DNA of 64,000 bases, from assembly GCA_041743505.1 (NCBI GenBank), contig JBGTMQ010000020.1, forward strand, positions 17,099 through 81,098, in the 5' to 3' direction. The position numbers were made by a program, and so were the translations under genes. This DNA is from Candidatus Saccharimonadia bacterium (GTDB taxonomy: Bacteria; Patescibacteriota; Saccharimonadia; UBA4664). Below, one piece after another: positions 42,113-57,748 of this stretch (its first letter is position 1; each line of letters opens with the position of its first letter). The notes below the pieces were generated by a model. The model had not been told where the DNA came from. It saw only the letters and a list, made by a program, of their open reading frames with translations, and did not search any database.

Positions 42113-43144
42113 ATGGCGCAATCTCAGAAACTCATCAGCATTATTGTGCCTTGTCACAACGAGCAAGCCAATATCGAGCCGCTTTACCAGGCATTATCAC
42201 AAACCATCAATGACCTACCGGAATCTTTCGAGTTTATTTTTGTCGATGACGGCAGTAAGGACGACACCCTAATCGGCCTCCGCGAGCTGGCTGAGCGCGA
42301 CGAACGGGTCCGGGTTATCGAAATGGTGCGCAACTTCGGCAAGGAAATCGCCATTACCGCCGGCCTGCATCAATCCAGCGGCGATGCGGCTATTTGTCTG
42401 GACGCCGACCTCCAACACCCCCCGGAACTCATCCCGGACCTCATAGCCAAGTGGCACGGCGGCGCCGAAGTCGTCGTCGGTATCCGCTCACCCGGCTCCC
42501 GCCACGCCTCATTTATTAAGCTGGCCGGCAGCGCCGTCTTTTATAGGCTCATGAACGCCATCTCCGACGTCGAAATCGTCGCCCGCGCCACCGATTATCG
42601 CCTTATCGACCGGGTCGTCATCAACGAGTTCAACCGCTTCACCGAGCACAGCCGCATCACCCGCGGGCTCATCGACTGGTTGGGCTTCAAGCGCGCCTAC
42701 GTCGAATTCAAAACCCCCAGCCGCAACGCCGGTAACGCCGGTTACGGCATATTCAAGCTCGTCAATCTGGCCCTCAACTCCTTTGTTTCCATGAGCCTTG
42801 TCCCACTCCGCTTCGCCGGCTGGCTTGGCGCCGTCATCATGCTCACCTCGGGCGCTACCGGCCTATTCATTTTCATCGAGAAATACCTTCTCAAGGACCC
42901 CTGGGGCCTTGGCTTCTCCGGCCCGGCCATCCTGGCCGTCATCATCCTGTTCCTCGTCGGCCTCATGCTGGTCTGCCTTGGGCTCATCTCGCTCTATATT
43001 GGTGTCATCCACACCGAAGTCATGAACCGCCCGCTCTACGTCACCCGCAGCCGCAATCGCCGGGGCGGCCGCATCCTCGTTGATGCCCAGGAGGTGGTCG
43101 AGCATCAAAAACAAGAACAAGAGCACGAGGCGCTCCGCCGGTGA
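42113..43144 (+). CDS. family 2 glycosyltransferase (GtrB / polyprenol-phosphate glycosyltransferase-like, with C-terminal TM helices)
   Basis: ISIIVPCHNE...FVDDGSKDDT...DADLQHPPE matches GT2 DXD architecture. Two C-terminal TM helices are typical of GtrB/DPM1-like enzymes. Confidence 0.8.
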   Translation: MAQSQKLISIIVPCHNEQANIEPLYQALSQTINDLPESFEFIFVDDGSKDDTLIGLRELAERDERVRVIEMVRNFGKEIAITAGLHQSSGDAAICLDADLQHPPELIPDLIAKWHGGAEVVVGIRSPGSRHASFIKLAGSAVFYRLMNAISDVEIVARATDYRLIDRVVINEFNRFTEHSRITRGLIDWLGFKRAYVEFKTPSRNAGNAGYGIFKLVNLALNSFVSMSLVPLRFAGWLGAVIMLTSGATGLFIFIEKYLLKDPWGLGFSGPAILAVIILFLVGLMLVCLGLISLYIGVIHTEVMNRPLYVTRSRNRRGGRILVDAQEVVEHQKQEQEHEALRR

Positions 43145-44286
43145 ACATCCTCTGGCTAACCTGGAAGGACCGCCGGAATCCTCTTGCTGGCGGGGCCGAA
43201 GTGGTCAATGAAGAGCTGGCCAAGCGCCTGGCCTCAGGCGGCCACAAAGTCACCTTCCTGGTCGCAGGATTTCCCGGCAGCCAGCCCCAAGAAGACCGCG
43301 ACGGCTTCCATATCATTCGCATCTCCAGCCGCTATATGGTCTATTTAGCTGCCTTCAGCTACTTCCGTCGCCACCAAACCGAACTCAACCCTGACCTAGT
43401 CATCGACGAGTGCAACACCATGCCGTTCTTTTCGGCTTGGTACACGCACAAACCAACCATTATGTTCTTCCACCAACTTTGCCGCATTACCTGGTTTTAT
43501 CAATTTCCCCAACCCCTCTCCACCATCGGCTGGCTGGCCGAACCCGTTTACCTTCGCCTGCTCAAACGCAGCCCGGTTATCACCATCTCAAACTCCGCCA
43601 AACAAGACCTTATCCGCCACGGCTTCAAGGCCGCCGACATCCACATCATCTCCGAAGGCTCCCACCTCACACCCGTCAAAGACCCTGCCGGTGTCGTCAA
43701 ATTTGCCACCCCCACCATCATCAGCCTCGGCTCCATTCGTCCCGTCAAACGCACCCTCCACCAGCTCCAAGCCTTCGAACACGCCAAAGCTACCATGCCT
43801 GACCTCCGCTTCATCATTGGCGGCGACTCCTCGGGCAGCTACGGCAGCCAATTCCTCGAAGCCATCAAGCGTAGCCCCTACGCCGCCGATATTGACTACC
43901 GCGGCCATGTCAGCGACGCCGAAAAACTCGAACTCATGCAGCGTGCCCACGCCATCGTCGTCACCAGCGTCAAAGAAGGCTGGGGACTCATCGTCACCGA
44001 AGCCAACTCGCAGGGCACCCCGGCCGTCGTCTACGACGTCGACGGCCTCCGCGATAGCGTCCGCGACGGCCAAACCGGCCTAATAACGCCAGCCAATACA
44101 CCCGAAGCGCTAGGAGACAAAATCATTGAACTCCTCCGCGACCCCGCCCGCTACCAAACCCTCCGCACGCAAGCCTGGCAATGGAGCAAAACCATCACCT
44201 TCGATCAAAGCTACGCCGACTTCACCAAAGTCCTCAATCTGACTACTACCCCTAACGAATCCCGACAAGAAGTTCCTACTCCGTGA
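43141..44286 (+). CDS. family 4 glycosyltransferase (GT-B fold)
   Basis: GT4 EX7E region EGWGLIVTEANSQGTPAVVYDVDGL. GTGA overlap with the preceding GT2. Confidence 0.8.
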   Translation: MNILWLTWKDRRNPLAGGAEVVNEELAKRLASGGHKVTFLVAGFPGSQPQEDRDGFHIIRISSRYMVYLAAFSYFRRHQTELNPDLVIDECNTMPFFSAWYTHKPTIMFFHQLCRITWFYQFPQPLSTIGWLAEPVYLRLLKRSPVITISNSAKQDLIRHGFKAADIHIISEGSHLTPVKDPAGVVKFATPTIISLGSIRPVKRTLHQLQAFEHAKATMPDLRFIIGGDSSGSYGSQFLEAIKRSPYAADIDYRGHVSDAEKLELMQRAHAIVVTSVKEGWGLIVTEANSQGTPAVVYDVDGLRDSVRDGQTGLITPANTPEALGDKIIELLRDPARYQTLRTQAWQWSKTITFDQSYADFTKVLNLTTTPNESRQEVPTP

Positions 44287-44650
44287 CAGAACTGGAATGC
44301 TGGCTCCGCAAAGTACTCTTAAATGCTAAATAAGCACCCAGGCCGGACAAAACAACCACTAGAAAGTAAACCGGGGACAGTAGCTCCGGCTGGAATCCAG
44401 TTTCCGCTATGGCTAAGCCATTAACAATCACGCTTGGTGCTATTTGTATAACGAGAATACCACCCAGTATTCGCAAAGCAACTCTTGAAGGTCTCACCAA
44501 CACAGTCATAGCCAGAGCGATCGCTATTATGGCTATGACTACAGCAATAAGCCTGTAAAAATTTAGATCAAAGCCAGGTATGTACACGTGTAAGAAATAA
44601 ATTGACACCCCAATCGCCAAAAATGCCGCGGAACGAGATAAATTACTCAT
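44276..44650 (-). CDS. small membrane protein
   Basis: 124 aa with 4 TM helices; low-GC region. Confidence 0.4.
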   Translation of the reverse strand: MSNLSRSAAFLAIGVSIYFLHVYIPGFDLNFYRLIAVVIAIIAIALAMTVLVRPSRVALRILGGILVIQIAPSVIVNGLAIAETGFQPELLSPVYFLVVVLSGLGAYLAFKSTLRSQHSSSVTE

Positions 44651-44742
44651 CCTTAGTTTAAGAATTGCTTAAGCATAAACATAATTTAACATTTTACTGA
44701 AGCAAAGAATATCAGCAAACCGCTTCTACTAACGATATTTAC

Positions 44743-45045
44743 TTACTGACCGAATAATGCCCAAATCCAACCCATTTGAATACTAACAAACAACCCCCAG
44801 CCAATAAGGGCCAGATAAGTTCCAGCCTTGCGAATGAGCAATAGTCGCTTTCGAATCTTCTGATCTTTTTGACGGCGGATCGCCATCGTGATGCCGATGA
44901 ATGCCGCGACGAGGATGACGAGAAAAATAATTGTATAGTTCACATAGTCATAAAAGCGTTGGGCCCAAAGATCTTGCCAAACGGGACTACCGTACGTAAG
45001 GAAGCCTAAATGATATTGGATAATACTCATGTCTACAGTGTACAT
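44743..45045 (-). CDS. small membrane protein, paralog family A (copy 1)
   Basis: The C-terminal 75 aa are near-identical to 48544..48831. Related to 47008..47286. Confidence 0.5.
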   Translation of the reverse strand: MYTVDMSIIQYHLGFLTYGSPVWQDLWAQRFYDYVNYTIIFLVILVAAFIGITMAIRRQKDQKIRKRLLLIRKAGTYLALIGWGLFVSIQMGWIWALFGQ

Positions 45046-45101
45046 AATTTATCCCTACAAAAGCTAAGTCTAGGAGAGCAAGATGCACTCTCCGGGACTA
45101 T

Positions 45102-45461
45102 ATGTTGTTCTTAGCTTGCCCAGGGCAGCTTCCAAAATTTGGAAATACCCTACTAGAACGCTACACTAAGACAGAAATGACGCGCCTAAGTCTTAGTCTT
45201 GTACTACTCCTCAGCGGCCTCCTATTGGCGTTGGTAGCATATACTTGGGCAGCCCCTCAAGTCTGCGCACTCAAGGGTTTACCAATGAACTCATTTGGTT
45301 GCCTGTACATCGTTATCTATGCAACGGCGGGCGCACTACTCGTGCCGTTCTTAGCGGGTCTCGTACTGTACGTACGAGAACTCCGCCGAACTCTTAAGCC
45401 CAATTCAAACACCAAGCAGGGTAAAAGTATGATACCCAGCAAAAAAGATCTAATTATGTGA
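45102..45461 (+). CDS. small membrane protein
   Basis: 119 aa with 2-3 TM helices. Confidence 0.3.
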   Translation: MLFLACPGQLPKFGNTLLERYTKTEMTRLSLSLVLLLSGLLLALVAYTWAAPQVCALKGLPMNSFGCLYIVIYATAGALLVPFLAGLVLYVRELRRTLKPNSNTKQGKSMIPSKKDLIM

Positions 45462-45470
45462 TGATTTCAA

Positions 45471-45785
45471 CTAACGAAGGTTTTCCCAACCTGTTGGAAC
45501 GATTGAAAGAAACTTATAGACGGCCAACTGAGCGATTAAAAGGAACACGGCGAGAGAAGCAGAAGCAATAAGCCAGCCTTTACGCGGCTTATTTAGCCAA
45601 AACCAGCCGAGCCAAGCTAAGCCAGTACCAATAGCTGTTACAGCACCAAATTCAACAACAGAAACCCCCTGATAACGTGCATACTTCCAATACAGGACGG
45701 AAAAGATAATGTAATACACAGGAACAGCTAGTTGGCGAATCACATTGAGGCATTGCTTATTCATGGATATATAGGGAGAAGTCAT
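45471..45785 (-). CDS. small membrane protein, paralog family B (copy 1)
   Basis: Shared motifs with 45802..46095 (IIF..YWKYA.YQG....EFG.V.......LAWLGWF.LN.PRK). Confidence 0.5.
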   Translation of the reverse strand: MTSPYISMNKQCLNVIRQLAVPVYYIIFSVLYWKYARYQGVSVVEFGAVTAIGTGLAWLGWFWLNKPRKGWLIASASLAVFLLIAQLAVYKFLSIVPTGWENLR

Positions 45786-45801
45786 CTGCCCTTACTGTTC
45801 A

Positions 45802-46095
45802 TTATTTGATATTTTCCCAACCCGCGGGAAGAGAAGTCATAAATGTATACACATATATCAGAGCGAATAGTAAAACTATTACTAACGAGGCTGAGGAAAT
45901 AAGCACTGCTTTACGTGGTTGATTCAATAAGAACCAGCCGAGCCAAGCAAGCACGCCACCAGCGGTGATAACGCTACCAAATTCATAGGCAGTGAAGCCT
46001 TGGTAAAACGCGTATTTCCAAAAAATGATTATGAAAATAATGTAAGTCAAAGGGATACTTAGTTGACGAGCTATGGTAGAATATTGCTTACTCAT
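45802..46095 (-). CDS. small membrane protein, paralog family B (copy 2)
   Basis: Tandem paralog of 45471..45785. Confidence 0.5.
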   Translation of the reverse strand: MSKQYSTIARQLSIPLTYIIFIIIFWKYAFYQGFTAYEFGSVITAGGVLAWLGWFLLNQPRKAVLISSASLVIVLLFALIYVYTFMTSLPAGWENIK

Positions 46096-46357
46096 AGCAA
46101 TATTCTACCATAAGCGAATAAGCAGATCGATCGCTGAATTTAATAAGCGGGTGGACACCGAAAGGCGCCCACCCGCAACCTTATCCCAGCCTTACGAGCT
46201 TCTGCTACAGTATTCTTGATGACATCATTGAGCTTGAATCCAAAACTTCAGTACGAGCACAAAAAAAGTCCACATCCCGAGTCATATCGTGATGTGGACT
46301 AAAATCTAGTTGCGAGTACAGATTGAACCGCGGCTAGTATTCGGCTAACATTATGAC

Positions 46358-46600
46358 ATGAAAGGCACGAACAAAGGTTCAAAACCCGTGAAAAACAGGT
46401 CAATAGCGGGGCTAATACTCATATGCCTGAGTCCTCTCGCTGCGTTGCCGGCGGTCACATTTCTAGGTTCGAGCGTATGCCAGCCCCAAGGCGGCTTTTT
46501 AGACTTCAGTTGCCTCCAGCCTAACGCCTACCTTGGAGCCGCTGCTTTAGCATCGGCGCTACTTATTGGTTGCCTGCTGTATTTTTGGCCTTCGCGCTAA
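46358..46600 (+). CDS. small membrane protein
   Basis: 80 aa with 2 TM helices. Confidence 0.3.
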   Translation: MKGTNKGSKPVKNRSIAGLILICLSPLAALPAVTFLGSSVCQPQGGFLDFSCLQPNAYLGAAALASALLIGCLLYFWPSR

Positions 46601-46737
46601 GGACATAGCATTGCGTTATCCTTACTGCTCCTGCAAGTTAATTATATAACGCCTCTATACGCAGTACTTTGGACACTAACTTGGCTGCTTGCTGGGCTCA
46701 TCGTATGCATTCGAGATTCGGCCTGGGCTTCAATGCT

Positions 46738-46995
46738 CTACAATAACCCCACATAGTTTCCGGATGGTATAAAAACGAAGAAATACCACGCTAGCCCACC
46801 AAGGGAAGCTATTGCTGCACAATAAGCTAGAGTTTTGAGAGTCTTCTTTATTTGCGAGCGCCGCTGGCTTTTCCGCCCAGCCAAATACCAATAACTACCA
46901 AGTAACGCAAGCACGATAATCAGTGGCAAAACGATAACTAAGAATATGTGTGCATAAAAAGCTGAAGCTGGAATAAAGCCGTCTGGGTAGTACAT
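46738..46995 (-). CDS. small membrane protein
   Basis: 85 aa with 2 TM helices. Confidence 0.35.
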   Translation of the reverse strand: MYYPDGFIPASAFYAHIFLVIVLPLIIVLALLGSYWYLAGRKSQRRSQIKKTLKTLAYCAAIASLGGLAWYFFVFIPSGNYVGLL

Positions 46996-47007
46996 AGTCG
47001 TGTATTA

Positions 47008-47286
47008 CTAGCCGAGCGGTATCAGAGACATTCCTACGCCGACAAAAAATAGCCACCCTATTAATGAGAGATAAGTACCAATTTTGCGAGCTAACAATAG
47101 TTGCTTTCGAACCTTCTGATTCTTTTGATGACGGATGGCAATTGTTACCACTGTAAAGGCGGCAATAAGAACGACAAAGAAAATAATCGTATAAAGCTCA
47201 TATTCGTAAAGTCGCTGATTCCAAGTATTTTGCCAGTCAGGATCATTCGGGGAAAATGCACCGAAAAGAAATTGGATATTATTCAT
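47008..47286 (-). CDS. small membrane protein, paralog family A (copy 2, diverged)
   Basis: Shares the FSP.DP.W...W.QR.Y.Y..YTIIF...L.AAF...T.AIR.QK.QK.RK.LLL.RK.GTYL.LIGW motif set with family A. Confidence 0.5.
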   Translation of the reverse strand: MNNIQFLFGAFSPNDPDWQNTWNQRLYEYELYTIIFFVVLIAAFTVVTIAIRHQKNQKVRKQLLLARKIGTYLSLIGWLFFVGVGMSLIPLG

Positions 47287-47323
47287 ATATTACAGTCTAC
47301 ACAATTTAGCAACACAAAAGCAT

Positions 47324-47356
47324 AGTCCCGGGGAGCATACTATGCTCCCCGGGACT
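47324..47356. terminator. 33-nt perfect hairpin (family of 3: also ~45068-45099 degenerate, 48868-48900)
   Basis: AGTCCCGGGGAGCATA-g-TATGCTCCCCGGGACT sits between the 3' end of the hydrolase-domain gene and the 5' end of a family-A gene. Confidence 0.5.
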
Positions 47357-47363
47357 ATTGTAA

Positions 47364-47978
47364 TCAGTGTATACCGGCACGCAGTGCTGCAACAGCAGCA
47401 TTAGCGATCTTGGTCTGACCAGCATCATTGGGATGTGGGTAGCCGAAGTAGCGAGTTTGCTGCAACCGCGACAAAGGGCTATTACCAAATGCCGTCCGGA
47501 GGTCAATCACCATGACACCGGGACCTGCCAAGTCTTGGTGTAGTAGATTCAATCCATCAACTACACTTTGAGCACCATGCCATGTGCCTGTCTTGGTCGG
47601 GTCGGACGGGGTAACTGGAATTTGTCGATTCTGGCTGCATACATTATTCGCCGCCAGTGTGTAGGGGTATAGCATGTCGACAAATCTAGTGCTGGCTGAA
47701 GCCGCTCGACCGTCAGCCATTATGCGGATGAGATCGGCACGAATTGGGCCTCGTTGATCCTGAAGCCGATTGTAAAGCGTCTGCGTGTCTGGGCAGTCAG
47801 ACCAATTCTTTACGTTCCATGGCTTAAGGCTACCCGTACGATTTGCATCGTAAAAATCTTTCAGCGTGGCATCGAACCTGATATTGTTCGCACCTCCAGT
47901 TAGGCTAACGATATTCCAGCTCCCCGAGTTTGAGCGGAGACTGCGAACCATTGCATCAATCTGACCTTGCTCGAACAT
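47364..47978 (-). pseudogene. truncated paralog of the SGNH-hydrolase C-terminal domain of 48912..51479 (lacks catalytic GDS block)
   Basis: The 204-aa product aligns almost residue-for-residue with the last roughly 205 aa of the 855-aa protein. It starts just after the position of block I (GDSFSSG), so the nucleophile is absent. Confidence 0.6.
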
Positions 47979-48020
47979 TTGCCGGGTGCTGGCTCCGCTC
48001 TGTGCAACGAGCAGAGTACG

Positions 48021-48224
48021 ATAACGCCAGCCAATACACCCGAAGCGCTAGGTGACAAAATCATTGAACTCCTCCGCGACCCCGCCCGCTACCAAACCCT
48101 CCGCACGCAAGCCTGGCAATGGAGCAAAACCATCACCTTCGATCAAAGCTACGCCGACTTCACCAAAGTCCTCAATCTAACTACCACCCCCAACCAATCC
48201 CGCCAAGAAGTTCCTACTCCGTGA
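48021..48224 (+). repeat. duplicated copy (~97% identical) of the 3' end of the GT4 gene (44083-44286), fused to hydrolase-derived sequence
   Basis: About 195 bp of 44092-44286 recurs with roughly 6 mismatches. The junction uses the 9-bp microhomology ATAACGCCA, present in both parents at 44083-44091 and 49569-49577. It creates the chimeric ORF 47967..48224. Confidence 0.8.
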
Positions 48225-48321
48225 CGGGTCTTTATGCCGAACTTATAGATTTACGCACAAAAACCTGAGCGACAACAATAAGAAAATACCCGAGTGGAGT
48301 GCTATAGACTGCTAAAAACGA

Positions 48322-48519
48322 TTAAGAATTCAGCCAAATATATTGGTAATAATAAAACGCAGCTATCAAAAGCAGAAATGATAGCATTAATAAAGCGAAC
48401 GGCCTCCACCGTAGAGTCTTTGTCTTTTGGAATTGCGTCAGACCCAAACCAAGAGAAACAGCACCACCCAAAAGAATAATACCGAGCAGAACAAGCTCTA
48501 AATATGTAGACGATTTCAT
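48322..48519 (-). CDS. small membrane protein
   Basis: 65 aa with 2 TM helices. Confidence 0.3.
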   Translation of the reverse strand: MKSSTYLELVLLGIILLGGAVSLGLGLTQFQKTKTLRWRPFALLMLSFLLLIAAFYYYQYIWLNS

Positions 48520-48543
48520 ATAAGCATTATAGAAGACATTTAC

Positions 48544-48831
48544 TTACTGACCGAATAATGCCCAAATCCAACCCATTTGAATACTAACAAACAGCCCCCA
48601 GCCAATAAGGGCGAGATAAGTTCCAGCCTTGCGAATGAGCAATAATCGCTTTCGAATCTTCTGATCCTTTTGACGGCGGATCGCCATCGTGATGCCGATG
48701 AATGCCGCGACTAGGATGATAAGGAAGATAATGGTGTAGTTTACGTAATCATAAAAGCGGTTGGTCCAAAAAGCGACCCATTCAGGGTCTGTCGGAGAAA
48801 AATCACCAAGATAAAAATGTATATGATTCAT
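48544..48831 (-). CDS. small membrane protein, paralog family A (copy 3)
   Basis: About 95% nt identity to 44743..45045 over the 3' roughly 230 bp. The 5' ends differ. Confidence 0.55.
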   Translation of the reverse strand: MNHIHFYLGDFSPTDPEWVAFWTNRFYDYVNYTIIFLIILVAAFIGITMAIRRQKDQKIRKRLLLIRKAGTYLALIGWGLFVSIQMGWIWALFGQ

Positions 48832-48911
48832 AGCAATAGTCTACGATAATTTTGCATAGAAAAGCAAAGTCCCGGAGAGTAAGGTGCGCTCTCCGGGACT
48901 ATATGTTGTTC

Positions 48912-51479
48912 TTAGCGTGCATCAGCTCTCAGGGCCGTAACCGCAATGCTAGCCATCTTGGTCTGTCCAGCATCGTTGGGGTGCGGATAACCAAAGTAGC
49001 GGGTTTGCTGCAATCGCTGCAATGGTCTGTTGCCAAACGCCACTCGTAGGTCAACCTTAATCACGTCAGGGCCTGCGAGGATCTGATGTAGGCGGTCAAG
49101 TTCATCAATGACGCTTTGGGCGCCATGCCAGGTACCCATTTGAGATGGGTTAGAAGGATTGGTAGGCACCTGGCGGTCCTGGCTGCACACATTGCTCGTC
49201 GGTAGTACGTATGGATAGAGCATGTCAACAAACCTGGTGCTGGACGAAGCCTCTCGGACAGTAGCAACAATCTGAGCCAGGTCGGCAGTGATTGTGCCTC
49301 TCTGAGCTAGCAAGCGGTTATATAATGCTTGCGTATCGGGGCAGTCAGACCAGTTGGTGACCGCCCACGGCTTAGGATCGCCCGAAGGATGCTCCTCATA
49401 GAATTCACGCAGCGTGTTGAGAAAGTCGATGTTGTTTGCACCTCCAGTAAGGCTGACGATATTCCAGCTCCCTGCGTTTGCACGAATGGTGCGAACCATC
49501 ACATCAATCTGACCTTGCTCGAACATTTGCCGGGTGCTGGCTCCGCTCTGTGCAACGAGCAGAGTACGATAACGCCACTCGTTAGGCACGCCAACGTTGA
49601 GTTTGCTGGCAGCGCGAGTTACCCAGGAGAAGTTTGGATCGTTCGCTGCGTATGACTTTGGGCTACACGACCCAACTAACGGCCACTCGATGGGTGCACA
49701 ACTGCGATTATCCACATCCTGATGGTGACCGCTACTGAAAGAGTCACCAACGCCAATCCATCTCGGTGCCGGAGGCACCTTCAGCTTCGTTGGCGCACCC
49801 CCATAAACAGGCGCATCAGACTTGGCAATCCGGGCAGTAATCGAGACGTTACCACTCGGCGGGAGCCGGTGGATCGAATCAAAGACCTTCCACTGGAAAC
49901 GGTACTGGCTGGGAGCCGTACCGCCCGCGGCACAAATCTGAGGCCGCTTCTCCCAATTACCGGCCGCTATAATCAGCGTAGCCGGACATGAGACGCCTGA
50001 CAGGTCAACCGTTACATCTAGGTGATACAGTGGCGTAGTATTGCCCACTGTCCAATTCACGCCAGTAACCTTGCCGTGCTGCTTGCCATCGGCAGGCGGC
50101 GGCGGAGGCGGTGGGTTGTCCACGGGGCTCTTCCACAGCACCGTTTGCGGGTATGCCCCGGTCAAACCGGGCACATTAAACGCATCAACGCTGTAGCTGG
50201 CCTCGCTTGACTCAGTGCCGCCATTCTTGTGCAGGAGCGACAAAACCGCCTTTCCAGGGACTAACGCCATCGACGGCTTCCATCCGTAATTGAACCAGCT
50301 CTGCTGGTTAGCCGAGCTGTCGCCCTTAAGGATGATGGGACTTTGTGCTGCGCCACCAGCGCTAAAGTGTGAAACTTGCACACCGGCACAGGCATCCGAC
50401 CACAAATTACAGTCGAAACTGAAATTGATTGCCAACAGCACCTGCCCGGTCCCGTCCACATGAGGAGCTTGAACCCCGCGCAGGTAAGTACCGGCTGGAG
50501 ACGTAATCGTCTGGTGCCAGCCAGCTTGCCCTGAACCGTCAACATACTGCACATCAGCACCGCTAGATACGTGGCTGACAACCACAGCACCCCCATTGGG
50601 GGTAGCTGCCACGTACGGCCCGCCATGATTACAGCGGGTAATGTGGGGCAATGTCTTGGTCCAGGCCACACCCGCCGGACCAAACTTAGTCAGCTTGGCG
50701 TCGCCATTGGCATCCAAGCAACCCTCTGGTGTGAGAGTCTGCGTGTACCACACGACGAACAACTCGCCTGTGGCCGAAGCCGAAACATCCCGGCCAACTG
50801 CGTCGGCCGGAGCTGGTGAAGCTGTGAACGGTCCGCCTGCAGTGCGGCCGTCGTATCCGAGGTACCACACACGGCCCGAACCACTATAAGCCACCAGGCC
50901 ACGGTCATAAGCCAGCAGCTTGTCGCTACTGCCGTAAGCAAAACCGCTCAAGGCCACACCAGCAAACAGTTCGTGACCGTCACTAGCATCGTAACCATGC
51001 AGCGTGCTGCCGGTCATGCCATAAACCTGGCCGTTAGCACCAACTGCGAGCAGATCCAACCCCGTTACGGACTTACTCCACTTCTCAGTCGAGCCGCTCG
51101 CTGCAATCAGCCGGGCTTGGCCGCTGCCGGGGTTCTGGACCCGGTAGGTGTTACCCGAAGCGTCCACTACTGGTCCCGGACCAATGTAGTCCTGGTCCTG
51201 GTAGCCCACGTTCCAGCTAGCCGTCCCAGTCGCATTAATGCCCACCAGGGCGTCGCCGCCACTCGGAACACCACCATTTGAGATGGCCGTATTGGCAATA
51301 ACACCACCGTTCGGCTGCGGCGACAAAGCCGCAAAATGCCGCACCGGCACACTCCACGCAGCCCCATTCCCAAACGGGCTGGGTGCAGCTGCTGCCACAC
51401 CTGGCACTAACATCGAGAACACCAGAGTACACAAAAGCACCACGGTCAAAGACCCGGTGCTGCGGCGTGACCTAGTCAC
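48912..51479 (-). CDS. secreted multidomain protein: signal peptide + PQQ/beta-propeller-like repeat region + poly-Pro linker + C-terminal SGNH/GDSL hydrolase domain
   Basis: Signal peptide with an AAAAP cleavage-like site. Repeated G..Y/W blocks suggest a beta-propeller. PPPPPPPPA linker. SGNH block I IGVGDSFSSG and block III SLTGGANNID. Confidence 0.6.
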   Translation of the reverse strand: MTRSRRSTGSLTVVLLCTLVFSMLVPGVAAAAPSPFGNGAAWSVPVRHFAALSPQPNGGVIANTAISNGGVPSGGDALVGINATGTASWNVGYQDQDYIGPGPVVDASGNTYRVQNPGSGQARLIAASGSTEKWSKSVTGLDLLAVGANGQVYGMTGSTLHGYDASDGHELFAGVALSGFAYGSSDKLLAYDRGLVAYSGSGRVWYLGYDGRTAGGPFTASPAPADAVGRDVSASATGELFVVWYTQTLTPEGCLDANGDAKLTKFGPAGVAWTKTLPHITRCNHGGPYVAATPNGGAVVVSHVSSGADVQYVDGSGQAGWHQTITSPAGTYLRGVQAPHVDGTGQVLLAINFSFDCNLWSDACAGVQVSHFSAGGAAQSPIILKGDSSANQQSWFNYGWKPSMALVPGKAVLSLLHKNGGTESSEASYSVDAFNVPGLTGAYPQTVLWKSPVDNPPPPPPPADGKQHGKVTGVNWTVGNTTPLYHLDVTVDLSGVSCPATLIIAAGNWEKRPQICAAGGTAPSQYRFQWKVFDSIHRLPPSGNVSITARIAKSDAPVYGGAPTKLKVPPAPRWIGVGDSFSSGHHQDVDNRSCAPIEWPLVGSCSPKSYAANDPNFSWVTRAASKLNVGVPNEWRYRTLLVAQSGASTRQMFEQGQIDVMVRTIRANAGSWNIVSLTGGANNIDFLNTLREFYEEHPSGDPKPWAVTNWSDCPDTQALYNRLLAQRGTITADLAQIVATVREASSSTRFVDMLYPYVLPTSNVCSQDRQVPTNPSNPSQMGTWHGAQSVIDELDRLHQILAGPDVIKVDLRVAFGNRPLQRLQQTRYFGYPHPNDAGQTKMASIAVTALRADAR

Positions 51480-51737
51480 GACCCCCTCCTTAACATGAGT
51501 AGGCTAAAACTGTGAATGAACTTAGAACCTTGACATTATACACTGGATAGTAAAATAAGTCAACAAAAGCTACTCGGCGCAACCAATCCTACCTGCATAA
51601 GTCGGCCCAATGTCCATAATATTTGTCATATTTCACAAAACACCGCTTGCCATTAGCTTGTAAACTAGTGTAGATAATTCACAAGTACGTTGGAGTAATC
51701 CAACCACATCAAGCCGTTTTAAGCAGGTACCCAGCTC

Positions 51738-52691: not shown

Positions 52692-53639
52692 ATGACCAAG
52701 CTCGATCAATCAAATCAGTCGCCTGTGAGTATAGTTATCCCGACCTTTAACCGGCCGGATAAGCTGGAAAACCTTCTGCGCAGTATTGCTGGCTCTACAG
52801 TAAAAGATTGTGAAGTTATTATTGTTGATGATTGTTCAGCTGTTCCCACCGAAGACTCGCTTCAAAGTTATTTGCCCAGCCTTAACCTGCGGGTCAAAGT
52901 CATTCGGAACAAAACAAACCAGCAGCTCACCAAAAGCCGTAATATCGGGATGAAGGCAGCTAGCGGTAAGTACATTTTCCTTGTCGATGATGATAATATC
53001 CTCGATCCCAAGTGCATTGAGGTTTTGCGGGACAAATTAGCCAGCGATGAGCATATTGGAGTTGTTGGGCCCGTCACCTACTTCGCCAATAACCCTAAAA
53101 CAATCTGGTGGGCTGGCACTAGTCGAAATATGACAACCAGCCGCACCCATTTCATTGGAACCAGCCTACCTCTGCCCGATGAACCGTCCTGGCCGTCCGA
53201 TGACTTTCCCAATGCCTGGATGATTACCCGGGAGATTGTTGATCGCGGGTGTTTTTTGGATGAAAGGTATAAAATTCACTATGACGAAGCCGATTATTGC
53301 GCAAGAATAAAGAAGCTTGGCTACAAGCTCTTTGTCGTACGTGACGCCCGGTCAAATCACGATTTTGAACCTGATTCCCCGAGCGCTTTAGCTGAGCGAT
53401 GGCTAGACCACCGCCGTGTCTATTACTCGGCGCGTAATCGCGTAGTTTTTCATAAGGAGTACTCCACCTCAAGGGAATTTTTGCAGTTTGCGCTATTCTG
53501 GAATTGGCTATTCACAGCCTATTATATGCAATATATCTTGCGCATACCCACCAAAAACTGGAGCACTAAATTAAAGAGCTGTTTCTCTTATCTCAAGGGT
53601 TCTATCGATGGGTTTTATGGCTTTAGAGAAGGTATCTAA
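52692..53639 (+). CDS. family 2 glycosyltransferase (low-GC)
   Basis: VSIVIPTFNRPD...IIVDDCS...LVDDDN matches the GT2 fold. Confidence 0.75.
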   Translation: MTKLDQSNQSPVSIVIPTFNRPDKLENLLRSIAGSTVKDCEVIIVDDCSAVPTEDSLQSYLPSLNLRVKVIRNKTNQQLTKSRNIGMKAASGKYIFLVDDDNILDPKCIEVLRDKLASDEHIGVVGPVTYFANNPKTIWWAGTSRNMTTSRTHFIGTSLPLPDEPSWPSDDFPNAWMITREIVDRGCFLDERYKIHYDEADYCARIKKLGYKLFVVRDARSNHDFEPDSPSALAERWLDHRRVYYSARNRVVFHKEYSTSREFLQFALFWNWLFTAYYMQYILRIPTKNWSTKLKSCFSYLKGSIDGFYGFREGI

Positions 53640-56600
53640 AAAAACCAAGACCGTCTTCTGGGCAGCGCTTGGCGGGGTAGGCATCATTGTGCTTGCCCTC
53701 TTGTCAATTAAAGGCAAGATGTTCATTATCCCGGACAATATGCCCATTACCTTAGAAAATTATCAGCACATTTTCTTGAGTAATAGCGCCTGGAGTCATT
53801 TCCTCAACATACCCACCTACGATCAGTCAATCTTTATATTTCGCCAGTACATCTTCTGGCTCTCCAAACTCTTCTCATTGGAATTAGGGCAAGGGCTCCT
53901 GTTAGGGAAAATTCTGTTCGTGCTTAGTGCCGGTTGGGGCATGTATCTGCTCGGTAAAGATATTAACCGCCGGTTCTTCGATGGCCGAATCGAAACGCTA
54001 TTCTTAATCATAGGCGCTATCTTGTACGCCTTGGCTCCGGCGTTTTTAATAGCCGATAGTTTCTGGGTTGGCATTCAGTTTGGCTACTATATTATTCCCC
54101 TCATACTTTTTAGCGTTACCAAAATAGTGCTAGACGGGAACTGGGTATACTTACCGCTGTACCTGTGGCTCCTGTCTCTCAATAACGCCATTCACTATAC
54201 CTATGGTGGTTACCCGGCATTAATCGGTATTTTTTGTCTGGCGCTTATCATTGGTGAAGGCCGGAGCGAAAAAATCAAACTAGTTCGCCTCGCCATGCGA
54301 CTGACCGTCATCGCGATCGGTTATCTCCTCATAATTTCACCCAACCTGGTCGGCTTGCTGTCTCCTGATGTCGGCATGGCCACCCAGATGACCAAGCAGT
54401 CGATTGACGCGCCGTGGTCGTCGGCTTCATTTGTGAACGTGGCCGTTGGCATGAGTTCTAACAACTTAATACTTGATTATTATTCACGCGATTCGCTCAC
54501 AAAAATCGCCTACGGATTCCTGGCCTTCGTTCCGATGATCGCTCTAATCTCGCTCCTATTTCTCCCAAAATACCGCGAAGCAGCCCAGAAATATTACCGG
54601 TTTCTACTCGCCATCATTATTGGCTATATGCTTGTAATTCTGTGTTTCTCAGATGGGAGCATTTTTAAGTTCATTCATTACTCACTAGCTTTCGATGCTC
54701 CAATGGGCCGCATCCTCAGAACCACGCGGGTGACCGAAAGCTTCGTCCTTATAGCCCTAGCTCTAATCATCCCATTTTCGCTGCACGAGATAAAACGCTA
54801 TTCAAAGATCCCCACCCGTATCATGGCCGTAATAGGCACCCTCGTATTATTGGCCTATATAACCCCCGTTTTAAAAGGGGATATAAACGGGCCAATAATT
54901 TCCGTGCCTAAGCAATATCTAGAGCAGTCCAATTTTCTCAAAACTGTCGCCGACCCTTCGGTCGACAAAACCGTGGCTGCGCCGGAGTTCACCGCCTCAT
55001 ATGGGAAAGATGCGGTTATGAAGCCGCATTGGAGCCCAAACGTGGGTATGATCGCCGAGTTCCTTGGTTACTCACAACCAATACAGGCCATCCTCACGCT
55101 TGATAACTTAAGACATTATTATTACTTCACCGTATCTGACTTTTATAAAAAATCGAATAACCTGATTTTTTCCGAGGAATTCTATGCCCTTGCTCATTTT
55201 TTAAGCCTGAATAACGTCCGGTATCTGATGTTTCACGCCGATACCCAATCAAATCTGAAAGATATCGAATTCGCCGACAAGATTCTCGATTCAAAGTACT
55301 GGCAAAGTGTCTATACCAATAAAGATATAACTGTGTTTGAAAACCAAGTCAGGCAACCGGCGGTTAGCGCTTATTCCCAAGATGAAACCTCGCTTGTGTC
55401 CGGCGGCTATCGGAGTGCTGCCAGGTTTATAAACCAATTGCCCGAAACACTGAACCAAAACCGGCTATTCGCCTTCTTAGACCAAGGCGCTAACCCTGCC
55501 CTAATAGGCACGACCGGGCGACTAATTACCGATAAAACACCCGGGGACCTCAACGGCGACATTATGGCAGCCAGCGTCATTGCCGAGAAATCACTACCAG
55601 GGGCCCAAATAATCTTTCCGGCCGAGAAAACCAAGCAGTACGCCCCAGAATCAGTCTGGTCCACCGGGACATACGCCAATAACCACGAGCAAGAGTGGCA
55701 CAGATATGTAAACGAAATGGACGATTACGCCTGGGATTTTGATTGGGGCCACGGCATTCTATTTATTAACCGGGCCAAAAATAAGTTAGAAATTCCCATT
55801 GAAAACGCCAGTCAGGGGCAATCCAAAATCCATGTCCGGTACCTCAAAAACGACAAGGGCGGAGACATGTATCTCAATATTAGCGGTCAGAGGTTCCATA
55901 TTAACTCAATATCCCCCTATGACGGCTTCGGCTGGGCCAGCTTTGACGTTGGCCAAACTAAAAATAACAACCACATCATCTTAGAAAATAGCAGCGGGTT
56001 TAACGCTGTTTCAACCATCCTCATCATCGACGATAAGGCAACCAATACTATTGCCTCTACTACCAAGCCTTTAATTACGAATGCCAAGATCATCGATAAC
56101 TCACTGGAAACCAGCCCCAATATCTCCCGCGCCTCAGGTTTTGAGAGTCCATCAGACATGGCCCAGTGGCGTGTGTCGAAGAAGGAGGGCTCCTTTACAT
56201 CCAAACTAGATACCAGCCAGCCCAAAGAGGGCAAGTCGTCTCTCGTAGTCCAAACTAGCGGCCAGTCGCGGGCCTGGAGCTGGATAGAGGGCCCATCCAT
56301 AAATGTTGAACCAGGCGAGAAGTATGTCTTCAGAACCAATATCAAGCTTTCCAATGCCATGAACTCACACATCGCGCTAATCGGTAAAGGGAAAAACGGT
56401 GAGAAACAGCTAACTCAACTGCCCGGAGCTATCAGCGGCACCAGTGAATGGCAGAGTTTCCGCCACACCATCAAAATCCCGTCCGGCGTTACTTCTGTTA
56501 GAGTCGCCCTCAATGCTGGCTGGGCAAAAGACAAGTCTCGACCTGCAAAAACCTGGTTTGATGCCATCAAATTAAACCCACTAACGCCCGCCTTACCTTT

Positions 56601-57039
56601 AGGTGAAGTAGAATCGATGTCCAAAAGCGTTACGAATTTAAAACAGCTAAATAACACTCGCTGGGAGGGCGACATCAGTCTACCCAACAACAAGCCTGTA
56701 TTCCTGGCCTTTAACCAAAGCTTCGATCCGGGATGGAAGCTTTTTCTAGCACCCGGCAATCAGTCTCAAAACAACGCAAGTTCTATTGGCTTCACAAAAC
56801 CCGGCCTGGAAATTGATACCAAGAAACATTTTAAGGCCAACGGTATTAATAATGGCTGGGAGATTGACCCAAGCTCGTTACCGCCTAATTTACAGAGCAC
56901 ACCCATGCATTTTGTAATCGAATATTGGCCTCAGCGCTCATACCTACTGGCTCAAATAGTCGAAGGATCAGCTCTCCTCCTCTCAGTCGCCGGTGCTATT
57001 GCCTTTGTCATATTCAGGAGGCGGAACAAACATGCATAG
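53608..57039 (+). CDS. giant polytopic membrane protein with large extracytoplasmic C-terminal domain and C-terminal TM anchor (GT-C / AftD-like architecture; paralog 1)
   Basis: About 12-13 N-terminal TM helices, then roughly 700 aa soluble, then a final TM (ALLLSVAGAIAFVIF) and a basic tail. It shares the C-terminal module (F.PGW.L ... NGW.ID ... PQR) with 59426..63205. Confidence 0.55.
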   Translation: MGFMALEKVSKKTKTVFWAALGGVGIIVLALLSIKGKMFIIPDNMPITLENYQHIFLSNSAWSHFLNIPTYDQSIFIFRQYIFWLSKLFSLELGQGLLLGKILFVLSAGWGMYLLGKDINRRFFDGRIETLFLIIGAILYALAPAFLIADSFWVGIQFGYYIIPLILFSVTKIVLDGNWVYLPLYLWLLSLNNAIHYTYGGYPALIGIFCLALIIGEGRSEKIKLVRLAMRLTVIAIGYLLIISPNLVGLLSPDVGMATQMTKQSIDAPWSSASFVNVAVGMSSNNLILDYYSRDSLTKIAYGFLAFVPMIALISLLFLPKYREAAQKYYRFLLAIIIGYMLVILCFSDGSIFKFIHYSLAFDAPMGRILRTTRVTESFVLIALALIIPFSLHEIKRYSKIPTRIMAVIGTLVLLAYITPVLKGDINGPIISVPKQYLEQSNFLKTVADPSVDKTVAAPEFTASYGKDAVMKPHWSPNVGMIAEFLGYSQPIQAILTLDNLRHYYYFTVSDFYKKSNNLIFSEEFYALAHFLSLNNVRYLMFHADTQSNLKDIEFADKILDSKYWQSVYTNKDITVFENQVRQPAVSAYSQDETSLVSGGYRSAARFINQLPETLNQNRLFAFLDQGANPALIGTTGRLITDKTPGDLNGDIMAASVIAEKSLPGAQIIFPAEKTKQYAPESVWSTGTYANNHEQEWHRYVNEMDDYAWDFDWGHGILFINRAKNKLEIPIENASQGQSKIHVRYLKNDKGGDMYLNISGQRFHINSISPYDGFGWASFDVGQTKNNNHIILENSSGFNAVSTILIIDDKATNTIASTTKPLITNAKIIDNSLETSPNISRASGFESPSDMAQWRVSKKEGSFTSKLDTSQPKEGKSSLVVQTSGQSRAWSWIEGPSINVEPGEKYVFRTNIKLSNAMNSHIALIGKGKNGEKQLTQLPGAISGTSEWQSFRHTIKIPSGVTSVRVALNAGWAKDKSRPAKTWFDAIKLNPLTPALPLGEVESMSKSVTNLKQLNNTRWEGDISLPNNKPVFLAFNQSFDPGWKLFLAPGNQSQNNASSIGFTKPGLEIDTKKHFKANGINNGWEIDPSSLPPNLQSTPMHFVIEYWPQRSYLLAQIVEGSALLLSVAGAIAFVIFRRRNKHA

Positions 57040-57451
57040 GCTTGCCAGAAACGAAAAACCTTCGCAACGGCTAGTTGAGGTTGTATTACGAAACGGCAAA
57101 GTTATAGCAGTTACATTACTTGTCATAAGTATTATCGCTGTTACAAAACCCTCACTTGGACTAATTATATTATTCACGCTGGTCGTACTCGTCAACCTAT
57201 TTCAGGTTGACGCCCTCAAGTTATTTGGTCTAGGGCTAATACTAATGGCAATCTGGCTAGCCCTTTTTACAAGTGACTTCATCCACGCCAAAAGCCTAAT
57301 GCCATCAGGATTAGCGGGCAATTTCCAAGGCTGGCCCTACTACTTGTTTTTTCTCGGCCTCACCCGGCTCCTATTCACCGAGACCCGCCCCAAGAGATCA
57401 ACAGCCGGCCAATTAAGCAGAAACCAGCGTATTTATGGCAGAAGTAAATAG
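57032..57451 (+). CDS. small membrane protein
   Basis: RBS AGGAGG at 57016 then ATG 57032. 4 TM helices. Confidence 0.4.
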   Translation: MHRLARNEKPSQRLVEVVLRNGKVIAVTLLVISIIAVTKPSLGLIILFTLVVLVNLFQVDALKLFGLGLILMAIWLALFTSDFIHAKSLMPSGLAGNFQGWPYYLFFLGLTRLLFTETRPKRSTAGQLSRNQRIYGRSK

Positions 57452-57748
57452 CCAAAAAACAAATAATGTACTCTGGGCGCAGTCTATCAGGTTAACTATT
57501 TTGTAAATTCGCACAATTACGCCGCTTGTCCCAGCTCCTAAACTAATCAAGCTACAATGTGATCCGTTGCTACCAGATCAACGACCGGAGTTATGCCGAA
57601 TTTACTTAAAATCTCAACTTAACTATGCCTAAACGCGCATTCCGTCAGGTGATTCCTGCACGATGAACAGCGCGCTTCTTTCTGTTGTCAAAACTAACCA
57701 CTCAGGCTCAGGCCTCTACTGTATAAACGTCGATTTAAGGAACTAAAC

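Follow-up and report, generated by a model that had tools for sequence, protein, structure and literature searches.

A secreted SGNH-type hydrolase with linked small membrane-protein genes in a Saccharimonadia bacterium: a candidate effector/immunity module with displaced cassettes

Displaced toxin 3′ fragments that keep their downstream small gene are known as orphan modules from contact-dependent growth inhibition (CDI; cdiA-CT/cdiI) and Rhs systems. Classical polymorphic toxins, in the sense of Zhang et al. 2012, reportedly keep a conserved trafficking region at the N-terminus and vary the toxin domain at the C-terminus among unrelated alternatives. Lipid-directed toxins with an immunity partner are also known from type VI secretion (T6SS), where the Tle lipases, paired with Tli, have an alpha/beta-hydrolase fold. 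Polymorphic toxin/immunity loci with orphan C-terminal cassettes have been described in general terms, and immunity to secreted lipid-directed toxins is typically provided by membrane proteins or lipoproteins at the outer face, including a type with four transmembrane helices (PMC12419801). A further study describes tsaI of the Staphylococcus aureus type VII secretion system (T7SS) as strings of non-identical membrane immunity genes, with recombination between tandem paralogs (PMC9484751). Here we analyse an island in a 64,000-nucleotide stretch of a Candidatus Saccharimonadia bacterium (contig JBGTMQ010000020.1, positions 17,099 to 81,098; hereafter the window), where ten small membrane-protein genes lie beside the gene of a predicted secreted hydrolase, Hyd. 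One family of these small proteins, family A, is linked to homologs of the same hydrolase in other assemblies, and we propose the pair as a candidate effector/immunity module.

The island holds ten open reading frames (ORFs) of 65-124 amino acids within 44276-48900, between the gene of a GT4 glycosyltransferase (43141-44286, plus strand) and the 855-amino-acid hydrolase ORF. Eight are on the minus strand (S1, A1, B1, B2, S2, A2, S3, A3) and two on the plus strand (P1, P2), and Kyte-Doolittle hydropathy gives each of them two to four hydrophobic segments. All ten were recovered, by ORF list and hydropathy, where a sequence-only reading of this DNA had placed its array of small membrane proteins. 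The features of the island are as follows.

43141-44286, plus strand: GT4 glycosyltransferase, 381 amino acids, left border of the island (Pfam Glycos_transf_1/Glyco_transf_4)
44276-44650, minus strand: S1, 124 amino acids, four predicted transmembrane helices, no detectable relatives (ORF and hydropathy)
44743-45030, minus strand: A1, family A, two transmembrane helices; 95 amino acids from the ATG at 45030, although the ORF could start at 45045 (alignment)
45102-45461, plus strand: P1, 119 amino acids (start more likely at 45177), two transmembrane helices, outer loop with two cysteines, paralog of P2
45471-45785, minus strand: B1, family B, three transmembrane helices; likely start at 45764, giving 97 amino acids (alignment with B2)
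45802-46095, minus strand: B2, family B, 97 amino acids, three transmembrane helices
46358-46600, plus strand: P2, 80 amino acids, two transmembrane helices, two-cysteine loop, paralog of P1
46738-46995, minus strand: S2, 85 amino acids, two transmembrane helices, basic loop
47008-47286, minus strand: A2, family A, 92 amino acids, two transmembrane helices; cognate partner of the orphan hydrolase fragment Hf
47364-48029, minus strand: Hf, orphan 3′ fragment of the hydrolase gene, 222 codons in frame, corresponding to Hyd residues 635-855
48021-48029: duplication junction with a 9-nucleotide microhomology, ATAACGCCA, common to the hydrolase (49569-49577) and GT4 (44083-44091)
48021-48225, plus strand: GT4 pseudogene fragment, the last 67 codons and stop, 97% nucleotide identity (self-comparison)
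48322-48519, minus strand: S3, 65 amino acids, two transmembrane helices; a TATAAT box ends 6 nucleotides upstream of its ATG
48544-48831, minus strand: A3, family A, 95 amino acids, two transmembrane helices; first gene past the full-length hydrolase
48912-51479, minus strand: Hyd, 855 amino acids, with signal peptide, all-beta N-terminal part, beta-sandwich and SGNH domain (GDSFSSG, GGANN, YPHPN)

The start of A1 at 45030, which aligns with those of A2 and A3, and that of B1 at 45764, taken from the alignment with B2, are the more likely ones.

Comparison with other assemblies links family A with the hydrolase. An exhaustive profile search of 1.84e9 representative proteins returned seven relatives of family A, one of them weak. 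Six of the seven, of 82-97 amino acids, have the motif SP[DN]DPxW, a first transmembrane helix, the basic loop ARRxKNxxLRKRLxLxRK and a second helix with IGW. The weak match, P0016 (131 amino acids), contains two tandem A-like units of basic loop plus second helix (SIRKQ...LIGWLLFLSFSIGWTVFIPGPKK). With A3 and the B profile as queries, word-indexed searches of 5.8e9 proteins recovered nothing beyond proteins of the source organism itself, so that the relatives of A came to light in the exhaustive search only. Contexts were judged informative where the upstream DNA is visible (L011 and L041 are too short), and in 8 of 8 such contexts a hydrolase homolog precedes an A gene, immediately next to it in seven and one gene away in L007.

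L004/L005/L010 (GCA_038245115.1): hydrolase 61% identical; behind it three intact A genes, a frameshifted fourth copy and then MazEF
L006: hydrolase 56% identical, A adjacent
L012: hydrolase 53% identical, A adjacent
L007-L009: distant PD40-propeller SGNH protein (GDSITAG, WPHPN), a gene for a 158-amino-acid membrane protein, then A
Contig carrying P0013: 724-amino-acid Tricorn-like protein 97 nucleotides upstream of A
L042/L043: the gene upstream of A ends ...RYYGYPHPDSSGQ

Family A and the hydrolase are thus the conserved unit that had been suspected, and family A shows the adjacency and conservation that mark an effector/immunity module. Loci carry one to three intact A copies plus a pseudogene, in line with the variable copy number that had been anticipated for an immunity island. 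The fourth copy in L004 (9635-9928) is a frameshifted pseudogene, in which MSPDDPEWQ... ends at a stop codon and the remainder is found in the +1 frame; this points to birth-and-death turnover of the array. Directly past this four-copy array lies a MazE/PemK (MazEF) pair (L004 10636-11252). Across three genomes the neighbours of the hydrolase-A pair are LepA, a methyltransferase, MazEF and chaperones; SAICAR synthase; and restriction enzymes. These differing neighbourhoods refute the alternative, raised by the sequence-only reading itself, that the small proteins are fixed-copy core components of exopolysaccharide (EPS) assembly, and the hydrolase-A module is independent of EPS genes.

The association of the hydrolase with small membrane genes extends beyond family A. 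A metagenome scan with the hydrolase profile yielded 29 loci, in which most homologs at 31-50% identity are followed, about 5-150 nucleotides downstream and on the same strand, by a small membrane gene of another family.

Family C, three transmembrane helices, outer motif AW(S/H)xYW: L022, L023, L025, L026 and L028, with three tandem paralogs in L036
Family D: L016, L018 and L039
Family E: L013 and L033

Profile-profile comparison shows no kinship among families A, B, C, D, E and P (hhalign probability <1%), and the genes downstream of the hydrolases are often tandem paralogs. Under a strict criterion (ORF of <=160 amino acids with >=2 transmembrane helices, starting <=150 nucleotides downstream on the same strand), such a gene follows 8 of the 18 homologs of the hydrolase, compared with 0 of 81 other ORFs of >=250 amino acids in the same loci (Fisher p = 2.6e-7). 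Orphan hydrolase 3′ fragments were found in four unrelated loci as well.

L026, 1486-1889: orphan hydrolase 3′ fragment
L025/L027, 2105-2448: orphan hydrolase 3′ fragment, followed by an insertion of an insertion sequence (IS)
L028, 1687-1803: orphan hydrolase 3′ fragment
L036, 2010-2132: orphan hydrolase 3′ fragment that matches the C-terminal end of the L023 hydrolase at 33 of 42 residues

Each fragment sits between the first small membrane gene and another one, and the recurrence of this pattern indicates that the hydrolase 3′ end and its downstream small gene have repeatedly been displaced together. An IS-type transposase ORF of 251 amino acids lies inside the small-gene array, in the gap between fragment and next gene, at L025 2575-3330 and L027 2934-3689.

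Within the window, families A and B stand as originally defined, with three and two copies respectively. Amino-acid identity is 81% between A3 and A1, 57% between A3 and A2, and 54% between B1 and B2, and both families lie well beyond chance (z = 42-52 against shuffles). The ratio of nonsynonymous to synonymous substitution rates (dN/dS, Nei-Gojobori) is 0.27 for A1/A3, 0.18 for A1/A2, 0.15 for A2/A3 and 0.09 for B1/B2; with values of 0.09-0.27, the A and B genes are real and under purifying selection. P1 and P2, which the sequence-only reading had missed as a pair, form a third family (Smith-Waterman z 7.0, reached by 0 of 500 shuffles) with two aligned cysteines in the outer loop. S1-S3 were ruled out as a single family (z <= 1.2). 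S2 was considered as a distant relative of family A, with z = 7 against A3, but the A profile gives it E = 1.7; the similarity may come from the common layout of two transmembrane helices and a basic loop.

Curated models exist for none of the small-protein families, and scans of the small proteins against Pfam, NCBIfam, PHROGs and PADLOC gave no match above threshold. A 2TM-TIR match (E = 0.004) and a Yip1 match (7e-5, score below the cut-off) covered transmembrane regions only and were disregarded. No membership in Wzy, Wzz, GtrA or the SMR-type flippases rose above threshold in Pfam or NCBIfam, the best matches being to unrelated families at E >= 7e-5. For A3 the predicted order is an outer N-terminus with SPTDPEW, a first helix, a basic loop and a second helix. 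Family A as a whole (about 85-100 amino acids) is predicted to be N-out/C-out by the positive-inside rule (one K/R in the N-terminal segment vs nine in the loop), with no charged cytoplasmic C-terminal tail. Its outer N-terminal segment of ~30 residues, predicted to be exposed, is acidic and aromatic and carries SP[DN]DPxW.

This exposed segment is where recent A paralogs differ most. A1 and A3 are identical at 69 of their 70 C-terminal residues, the N-terminal 25 have diverged and A1 has lost SPxDPxW; codons 1-25 have a dN of 0.65, and codons 26-95 one of 0.006. A pair in L004 (85 and 84 amino acids) has dN of 0.64 in the N-terminal part vs 0.056 in the rest, with similar dS (0.97 vs 0.77). 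The exposed ~25 residues thus diverge about 10-100 times faster than the remainder. A2 and A3 are 57% identical while the accompanying Hf and Hyd share 72%, so that A diverges faster than its part of the hydrolase.

On sequence alone Hyd matches the Pfam GDSL model weakly (E = 0.019), PF13472 scores E = 1.4e-7 on Hf, 0.2 bits below the gathering score, and the same family is precomputed on five homologs. A PDB sequence search with the hydrolase profile gave no match, and structure prediction was therefore used. The AlphaFold2 (AF2) model of the C-terminal 400 residues (12 homologs) reached a predicted local distance difference test score (pLDDT) of 87 and a predicted TM-score (pTM) of 0.85, and consists of a beta-sandwich followed by an SGNH fold. 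Of the 66 PDB matches that Foldseek returned at E <= 1e-3, almost all are SGNH enzymes, the best being 5mal (Streptomyces rimosus lipase) and 4hyq (S. albidoflavus phospholipase A1), with E about 1e-8 and a target TM-score of 0.67-0.71. Block I, with the catalytic Ser, reads GVGDSFSSGH in Hyd, and its G-D-S is invariant in 13 homologs; blocks III (TGGANNIDF) and V (GYPHPNDAG, with the catalytic His) are conserved in Hyd, Hf and the homologs. The Asp that usually stands 3 residues before the catalytic His is not evident. Blocks I, III and V together with the predicted fold place Hyd in the SGNH/GDSL hydrolase superfamily. The sole relative of the hydrolase among GTDB species representatives is found in a Candidatus Saccharimonadales metagenome-assembled genome (L001, 47% identical), and the window presumably stems from a related organism of Patescibacteria type.

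Hyd resembles Streptomyces SGNH enzymes (5mal, 4hyq and the S. scabies esterase 1esc), its best structural matches, in being secreted and in the GDS(Y/F)SSG form of block I. It differs from them in sequence, with an identity of just 16-18%, and in about 560 extra N-terminal residues that make up the all-beta region and the beta-sandwich. We know of no small membrane genes linked to the Streptomyces enzymes. Because the fold is nearest to secreted lipase and phospholipase A1 and not to cell-wall enzymes, lipid or ester bonds would be a likelier target than the peptidoglycan or acetylated glycans first suggested. No Pfam model matches the N-terminal 460 residues, and a single-sequence AF2 model of the N-terminus was unusable (pLDDT 39). 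The beta-propeller once assigned to this part is therefore not confirmed; it is plausible from the N-terminal regions of the homologs, which carry NHL, RCC1 or PD40/Tricorn propellers, or none.

The repeats of the island are a scar of duplication and recombination, and self-comparison resolves them into three pairs.

44083-44287 vs 48021-48225, 97% identical: 205 nucleotides, the last 67 codons of GT4
44734-45119 vs 48535-48920, 84% identical: A gene, hairpin and 18 nucleotides of the hydrolase 3′ end
47068-48029 vs 48613-49577, 71% identical: A gene, hairpin and 222 codons from the 3′ end of the hydrolase gene

At 48021-48029 the sequence switches from hydrolase-derived to GT4-derived, and the junction is the one that a tandem duplication running from the GT4 3′ end through the 3′ part of the hydrolase would be expected to leave. 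Homology between the repeat copies ends at the GT4 stop codon and restarts 9 nucleotides past the A stop codon. The slot that S1 occupies in one copy is held by S3 in the other; the two slots are unrelated, with boundaries sharp at the gene ends. Identity between Hf and Hyd is a mosaic, 97-100% beside the junction (47947-48029) and ~65% deeper in the fragment. A1 and A3 are likewise 92% identical over the 3′ 236 nucleotides and 75% over the 5′ ends and hairpins, and the promoter/start region of B2 (46092-46113) is 91% identical to that of A3 (48828-48849). Given this mosaic of divergence, at least two events would be needed, an older split of A2/Hf from A3/Hyd and a recent duplication or recombination. 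A chimera of two strains in the assembly was rejected. The parents share just 9 nucleotides at the junction, which a k-mer assembler would not have joined, and a Logan assembly made independently (SRR28170470) agrees at 100% identity over 44881-47983, ending where the repeats begin.

Three copies of the cassette can be distinguished: a complete one (Hyd, terminator, A3), a displaced orphan (Hf, terminator, A2) and an eroded one (an 18-nucleotide remnant, a degenerate hairpin and A1). The sequence-only reading had taken hydrolase, hairpin and A gene as the repeating unit; those parts are indeed repeated, but they are not the whole of it, since the 205-nucleotide copy of the GT4 3′ end, which that reading missed along with the duplication junction, is in the repeat too. 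Its statement that every A gene lies behind a hairpin and a full or truncated hydrolase holds for A2 and A3, whereas A1 keeps just 18 nucleotides of it (45102-45119). The truncated hydrolase gene was confirmed, in frame, with 72% amino-acid identity to the C-terminal part of Hyd and dN/dS of 0.14. Hf retains SGNH blocks III and V, and, because it starts past block I, it is without the nucleophilic Ser and could not be an active enzyme alone. An inactive relic or a recombination substrate is favoured over the orphan effector domain that had been envisaged.

These features can be set against the known orphan modules. Like CDI and Rhs loci, the island has a secreted multidomain protein directly followed by a small gene, displaced 3′ fragments each with their own small gene, a conserved stretch at the fragment 5′ end that could support recombination, and variable small-gene copies including pseudogenes. 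The combination of orphan 3′ fragment and small-gene cassette, a trait of polymorphic toxins, is seen in Hf with A2 and in L025/L027, L026, L028 and L036. Unlike in CDI and Rhs, export of the candidate effector appears to be plain Sec with no CDI, Rhs, T6SS or T7SS markers, and its catalytic C-terminal SGNH domain is constant while the N-terminal propeller-type domains vary (NHL, RCC1, PD40). A classical polymorphic toxin was consequently rejected, as the beta-sandwich and SGNH domain at the C-terminus are conserved and the N-terminal regions differ.

The island also contains signals that would separate the small genes from the hydrolase in transcription.

47322-47358, minus strand: hairpin after Hf, perfect 17-bp stem, -36.2 kcal/mol, z -6.9
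48868-48900, minus strand: hairpin after the full-length hydrolase, 12-bp stem, -26.2 kcal/mol, z -6.4
45067-45119, minus strand: degenerate hairpin at A1 (45067-45101) with the 18-nucleotide remnant of the hydrolase 3′ end (45102-45119), -16.5 kcal/mol, z -1.0
48832-48850: -10-like hexamer of A3, TAGACT
47287-47305: -10-like hexamers of A2, TGTAAT/TAGACT
45031-45045: -10-like hexamer of A1, TAGAC
46096-46113: -10-like hexamer of B2, TAGAAT
48520-48535: -10-like hexamer of S3, TATAAT
51535-51563, minus strand: promoter-like site of Hyd, TTGACT-17-TATAAT, 11/12 matches

The hairpins fold on the minus strand where they had been noticed, the third copy being degenerate, with two mismatches and an energy no different from shuffles. 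Both main hairpins lie <=12 nucleotides from the stop codon of Hf or Hyd. The stem at 47358-47322 (minus strand) is followed by the U-rich GCUUUUGUGU, and that at 48900-48868 (minus strand) by UUUGCUUUUCU, a tract also given as UUGCUUUUCU. The two have the features of intrinsic (Rho-independent) terminators, and we class them as predicted structures of this type at the 3′ ends of Hf and Hyd, a role that the sequence-only reading had not named. A compensatory change from A-U to G-C distinguishes the 47322 and 48868 copies at one stem position, and the U-tract of the 48868-48900 hairpin overlaps the -35-like box of A3. The 12-nucleotide hairpin arm occurs at only three sites in the window (5 matches vs 0.5 expected). 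A dispersed element of the repetitive extragenic palindrome (REP) or miniature inverted-repeat transposable element (MITE) type was rejected on this confinement. No known RNA family in Rfam matches the hairpins, and the Rfam scan of the window returned tRNA-Glu only.

A GC-rich stem-loop of 13-18 bp also follows the hydrolase stop codon in other loci (L004 9219-9358, L006 772-849, L012 5145-5206, L007 7406-7467), with a clear U-tract only in L006. The stem-loop sequences are unrelated between loci, which suggests conservation of structure and position, not of sequence. Two further minus-strand stem-loops, at 46148-46180 (-35.1 kcal/mol, z -4.6) and 46269-46300 (-22.2 kcal/mol, z -4.8), lie in the 260-nucleotide gap upstream of B2 and are probable terminators; behind the second comes a minus-strand U7 tract, although no ORF of that strand ends close by, and P2 is antisense to that path.

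A -10-like hexamer ends 0-8 nucleotides before the ATG of A3, A2, A1, B2 and S3, with no Shine-Dalgarno sequence, and an AAGGAGG Shine-Dalgarno lies upstream of the GTG start of Hyd. CTAGAC also directly precedes the ATG of the A homolog in L012. We infer that the small genes are transcribed separately from the hydrolase, their mRNAs possibly being leaderless.

We interpret these observations as pointing to a Sec-secreted effector of lipase/esterase type with exchangeable cassettes of 3′ end, terminator and membrane immunity gene, a candidate reading to which we give about even credence. It draws on the combination of a secreted enzyme with a linked, replaceable and tandem-diverged small gene, a fast-evolving exposed segment and displaced cassettes. 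The idea of an immunity array is favoured for family A, whose members we regard, with comparably balanced confidence, as candidate immunity genes. Here the evidence consists of linkage, copy number, divergence of the exposed segment and recurring fragments. For B, P and S, which have no homologs or linkage outside the source organism, the immunity label goes back to island position only.

In such a system, the island would be a self-contained two-part module inserted into a glycan-synthesis cluster, and the small membrane proteins would shield the producer's membrane from the hydrolase or from versions of it that relatives produce. In A, the N-terminal peptide exposed outside might bind or block the cognate hydrolase at the outer membrane face and so confer immunity. 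Surplus copies of A could serve as orphan immunity genes that counter non-self variants, a role in which B, P and S would perhaps join them. By homologous recombination, Hf and Hyd could exchange the C-terminal part of the enzyme together with its A partner. Each small gene would have its own promoter directly before the ATG, probably giving a leaderless mRNA, and terminators would keep hydrolase transcription apart from theirs, so that protection would be independent of hydrolase transcription.

A predicted lipase/phospholipase A1-like fold and an N-out topology of A would fit membrane immunity at the outer face, as described for lipid-directed toxins (PMC12419801). The arrangement resembles the Lipocone toxins and TelC-TipC, where a lipid-directed enzyme outside the cytoplasm is countered by a small, fast-evolving membrane protein or lipoprotein, and the two-gene order of a toxin with signal peptide and an immunity gene in Gram-positive bacteria (PMC12419801). 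Unlike Lipocone and Tle toxins, the enzyme here has an SGNH fold, and the candidate immunity proteins are new families of 65-125 amino acids. In S. aureus TspA-TsaI and EsaD-EsaG, strings of non-identical immunity paralogs in tandem likewise stand beside a polymorphic toxin and evolve by homologous recombination among themselves, and TsaI, a membrane protein that neutralises a membrane-acting toxin, would in this respect be like the A proposed here (PMC9484751). Those systems differ in their protein families, in their toxin activities (membrane depolarisation or nuclease) and in the T7SS route. Sequence similarity of A, B, P or S to the S. aureus T7SS immunity proteins was not found.

Several observations weigh against an effector/immunity module. 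None of the small proteins matches a known immunity family in Pfam, NCBIfam, PADLOC or PHROGs, and searches for B, P and S yielded no homologs or linkage outside the source organism. The export signal of Hyd is Sec only and a dedicated delivery domain is absent, as might be the case for an ordinary exo-enzyme. The ratio dN/dS never exceeds 1, and dS in the N-terminal part of A1/A3 is raised as well (1.67 vs 0.34), which indicates a recombination breakpoint and not demonstrable positive selection. Five hydrolase homologs (L001, L015, L019, L020, L030) have no same-strand small membrane gene downstream. Related hydrolases can also have unrelated partners, L012 (53% identical) having A and L013 (50%) having E, while the very distant L007 has A. 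Since the A/E pairing crosses hydrolase kinship, simple one-to-one co-evolution of toxin and immunity protein is not evident.

Some of these points would suit accessory partners, small proteins that retain, position, activate or regulate the hydrolase, then a nutritional exo-enzyme, at the producer surface, for instance in host-lipid scavenging or remodelling of the cell's own envelope, with the arrays as by-products of recombination. Adjacency is strict and often amounts to one gene per hydrolase (L006, L012, L022, L023, L028, L039), SPxDPxW is kept across distant A members as a binding site would be, the export signal is Sec with no toxin-delivery domain, and some homologs do without a small gene. 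A needed partner, however, should not be swapped for unrelated families among hydrolases that are 50% identical. Nor would one expect three to four divergent copies and pseudogenes beside a single enzyme gene, separation by a terminator with an own promoter, or orphan cassettes of 3′ fragment and small gene. We consider this explanation unlikely, though it is the strongest of the alternatives.

The orphan fragments could instead be silent cassettes, gene-conversion donors that vary the C-terminal part of a surface enzyme in antigenicity or specificity, with the small genes as passengers. Hf would suit this role, being promoterless, devoid of the 5′ two-thirds of the gene, in frame and with dN/dS of 0.14, and a stretch of 91-100% identity at its 5′ end could prime recombination; fragments also recur in other loci. 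Only one or two fragments are present per locus, however, and several are short (~40 codons) or frameshifted (L026, L036). Silent cassettes would also leave unexplained the small gene after each fragment and the link between hydrolase and A where no fragment exists (L004, L006, L012), and we regard them as improbable.

Many unrelated small families with two to four transmembrane helices beside a conserved hydrolase form the classical holin pattern, so that a phage or phage-derived lysis cassette, in which holin-like proteins release or activate a lytic enzyme, has to be weighed. The diversity of the small proteins and the switching of families between loci conform to it. Against it, the neighbours are glycosyltransferases with no phage genes nearby, and none of ten proteins tested, small proteins and hydrolase, matches PHROGs. 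A Sec signal peptide of its own and large binding domains belong to the hydrolase (855 amino acids), A is predicted to be N-out/C-out with no charged cytoplasmic tail, and a terminator stands before the small genes, which form downstream arrays of three to four paralogs. A lysis cassette is thus very improbable.

Core glycan-assembly parts (Wzy/Wzz-like), an assembly artefact or chance ORFs in AT-richer DNA are largely refuted: the position flanked by GT4 and GT2 genes, close to a Wzx-like flippase, and the low GC of the island (0.45), which favours chance hydrophobic ORFs, are outweighed by unrelated genes beside the hydrolase-A module elsewhere, the missing Pfam/NCBIfam matches to Wzy, Wzz and GtrA, purifying selection on A and B, the identical independent assembly over 44881-47983 and a 9-nucleotide junction too short for a k-mer assembler.

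With regard to its surroundings, the island (GC 0.45 vs 0.58 in the flanking genes) is flanked by GT4 and GT2 genes, and a Wzx-like flippase is nearby. GC varies from 0.42 to 0.64 across the window in 1-kb windows, the AT-richest parts being the island (44000-49000) and 57000-63000. The GT4 protein also passes Pfam PF20706, 'GT4-conflict', a glycosyltransferase of conflict systems, with a score of 51 bits where the cut-off is 26. Further along, downstream of the GT2 genes, 53608-57039 encodes a polytopic membrane protein of 1143 amino acids with a C-terminal CBM_4_9 carbohydrate-binding domain, which is probably part of the glycan cluster interrupted by the island.

A literature search found no described immunity system of Saccharibacteria or of SGNH enzymes, nor this module. 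The kind of system, an effector with immunity and orphan cassettes, is known; what sets this one apart as a variant is its enzyme type, export by Sec only, mini membrane proteins and lineage. More tentatively, and with doubt prevailing, the loci may represent an undescribed Sec-dependent system of antagonism or host attack in Saccharimonadales-type and other uncultured soil bacteria. In it, a propeller-targeted SGNH lipase or phospholipase would exchange its C-terminal part together with a mini membrane protein (at least four unrelated families, 65-140 amino acids) as cassettes, and an exposed peptide of ~25 residues would be the antidote that determines specificity, acting on the outer side of the producer's membrane. 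If so, cassette displacement, known from CDI, Rhs and T7SS, would extend to a plainly Sec-secreted enzyme, and several new mini-protein immunity families without Pfam entry would be added. The A-family profile, with the rule of SGNH hydrolase, stem-loop and small transmembrane gene, offers an aid for finding such loci in metagenomes.

Ultra-small episymbionts, Saccharibacteria and other lineages of the candidate phyla radiation (CPR), depend on host cells. To our knowledge, the molecules by which they attack hosts, feed on them and spare themselves are for the most part undescribed. If the proposed system is real, the enzyme could harvest host membrane lipids for lipid-auxotrophic episymbionts while the paired device spares their own membrane, and the locus would provide a concrete candidate for both the host-directed enzyme and the self-sparing membrane antidote.

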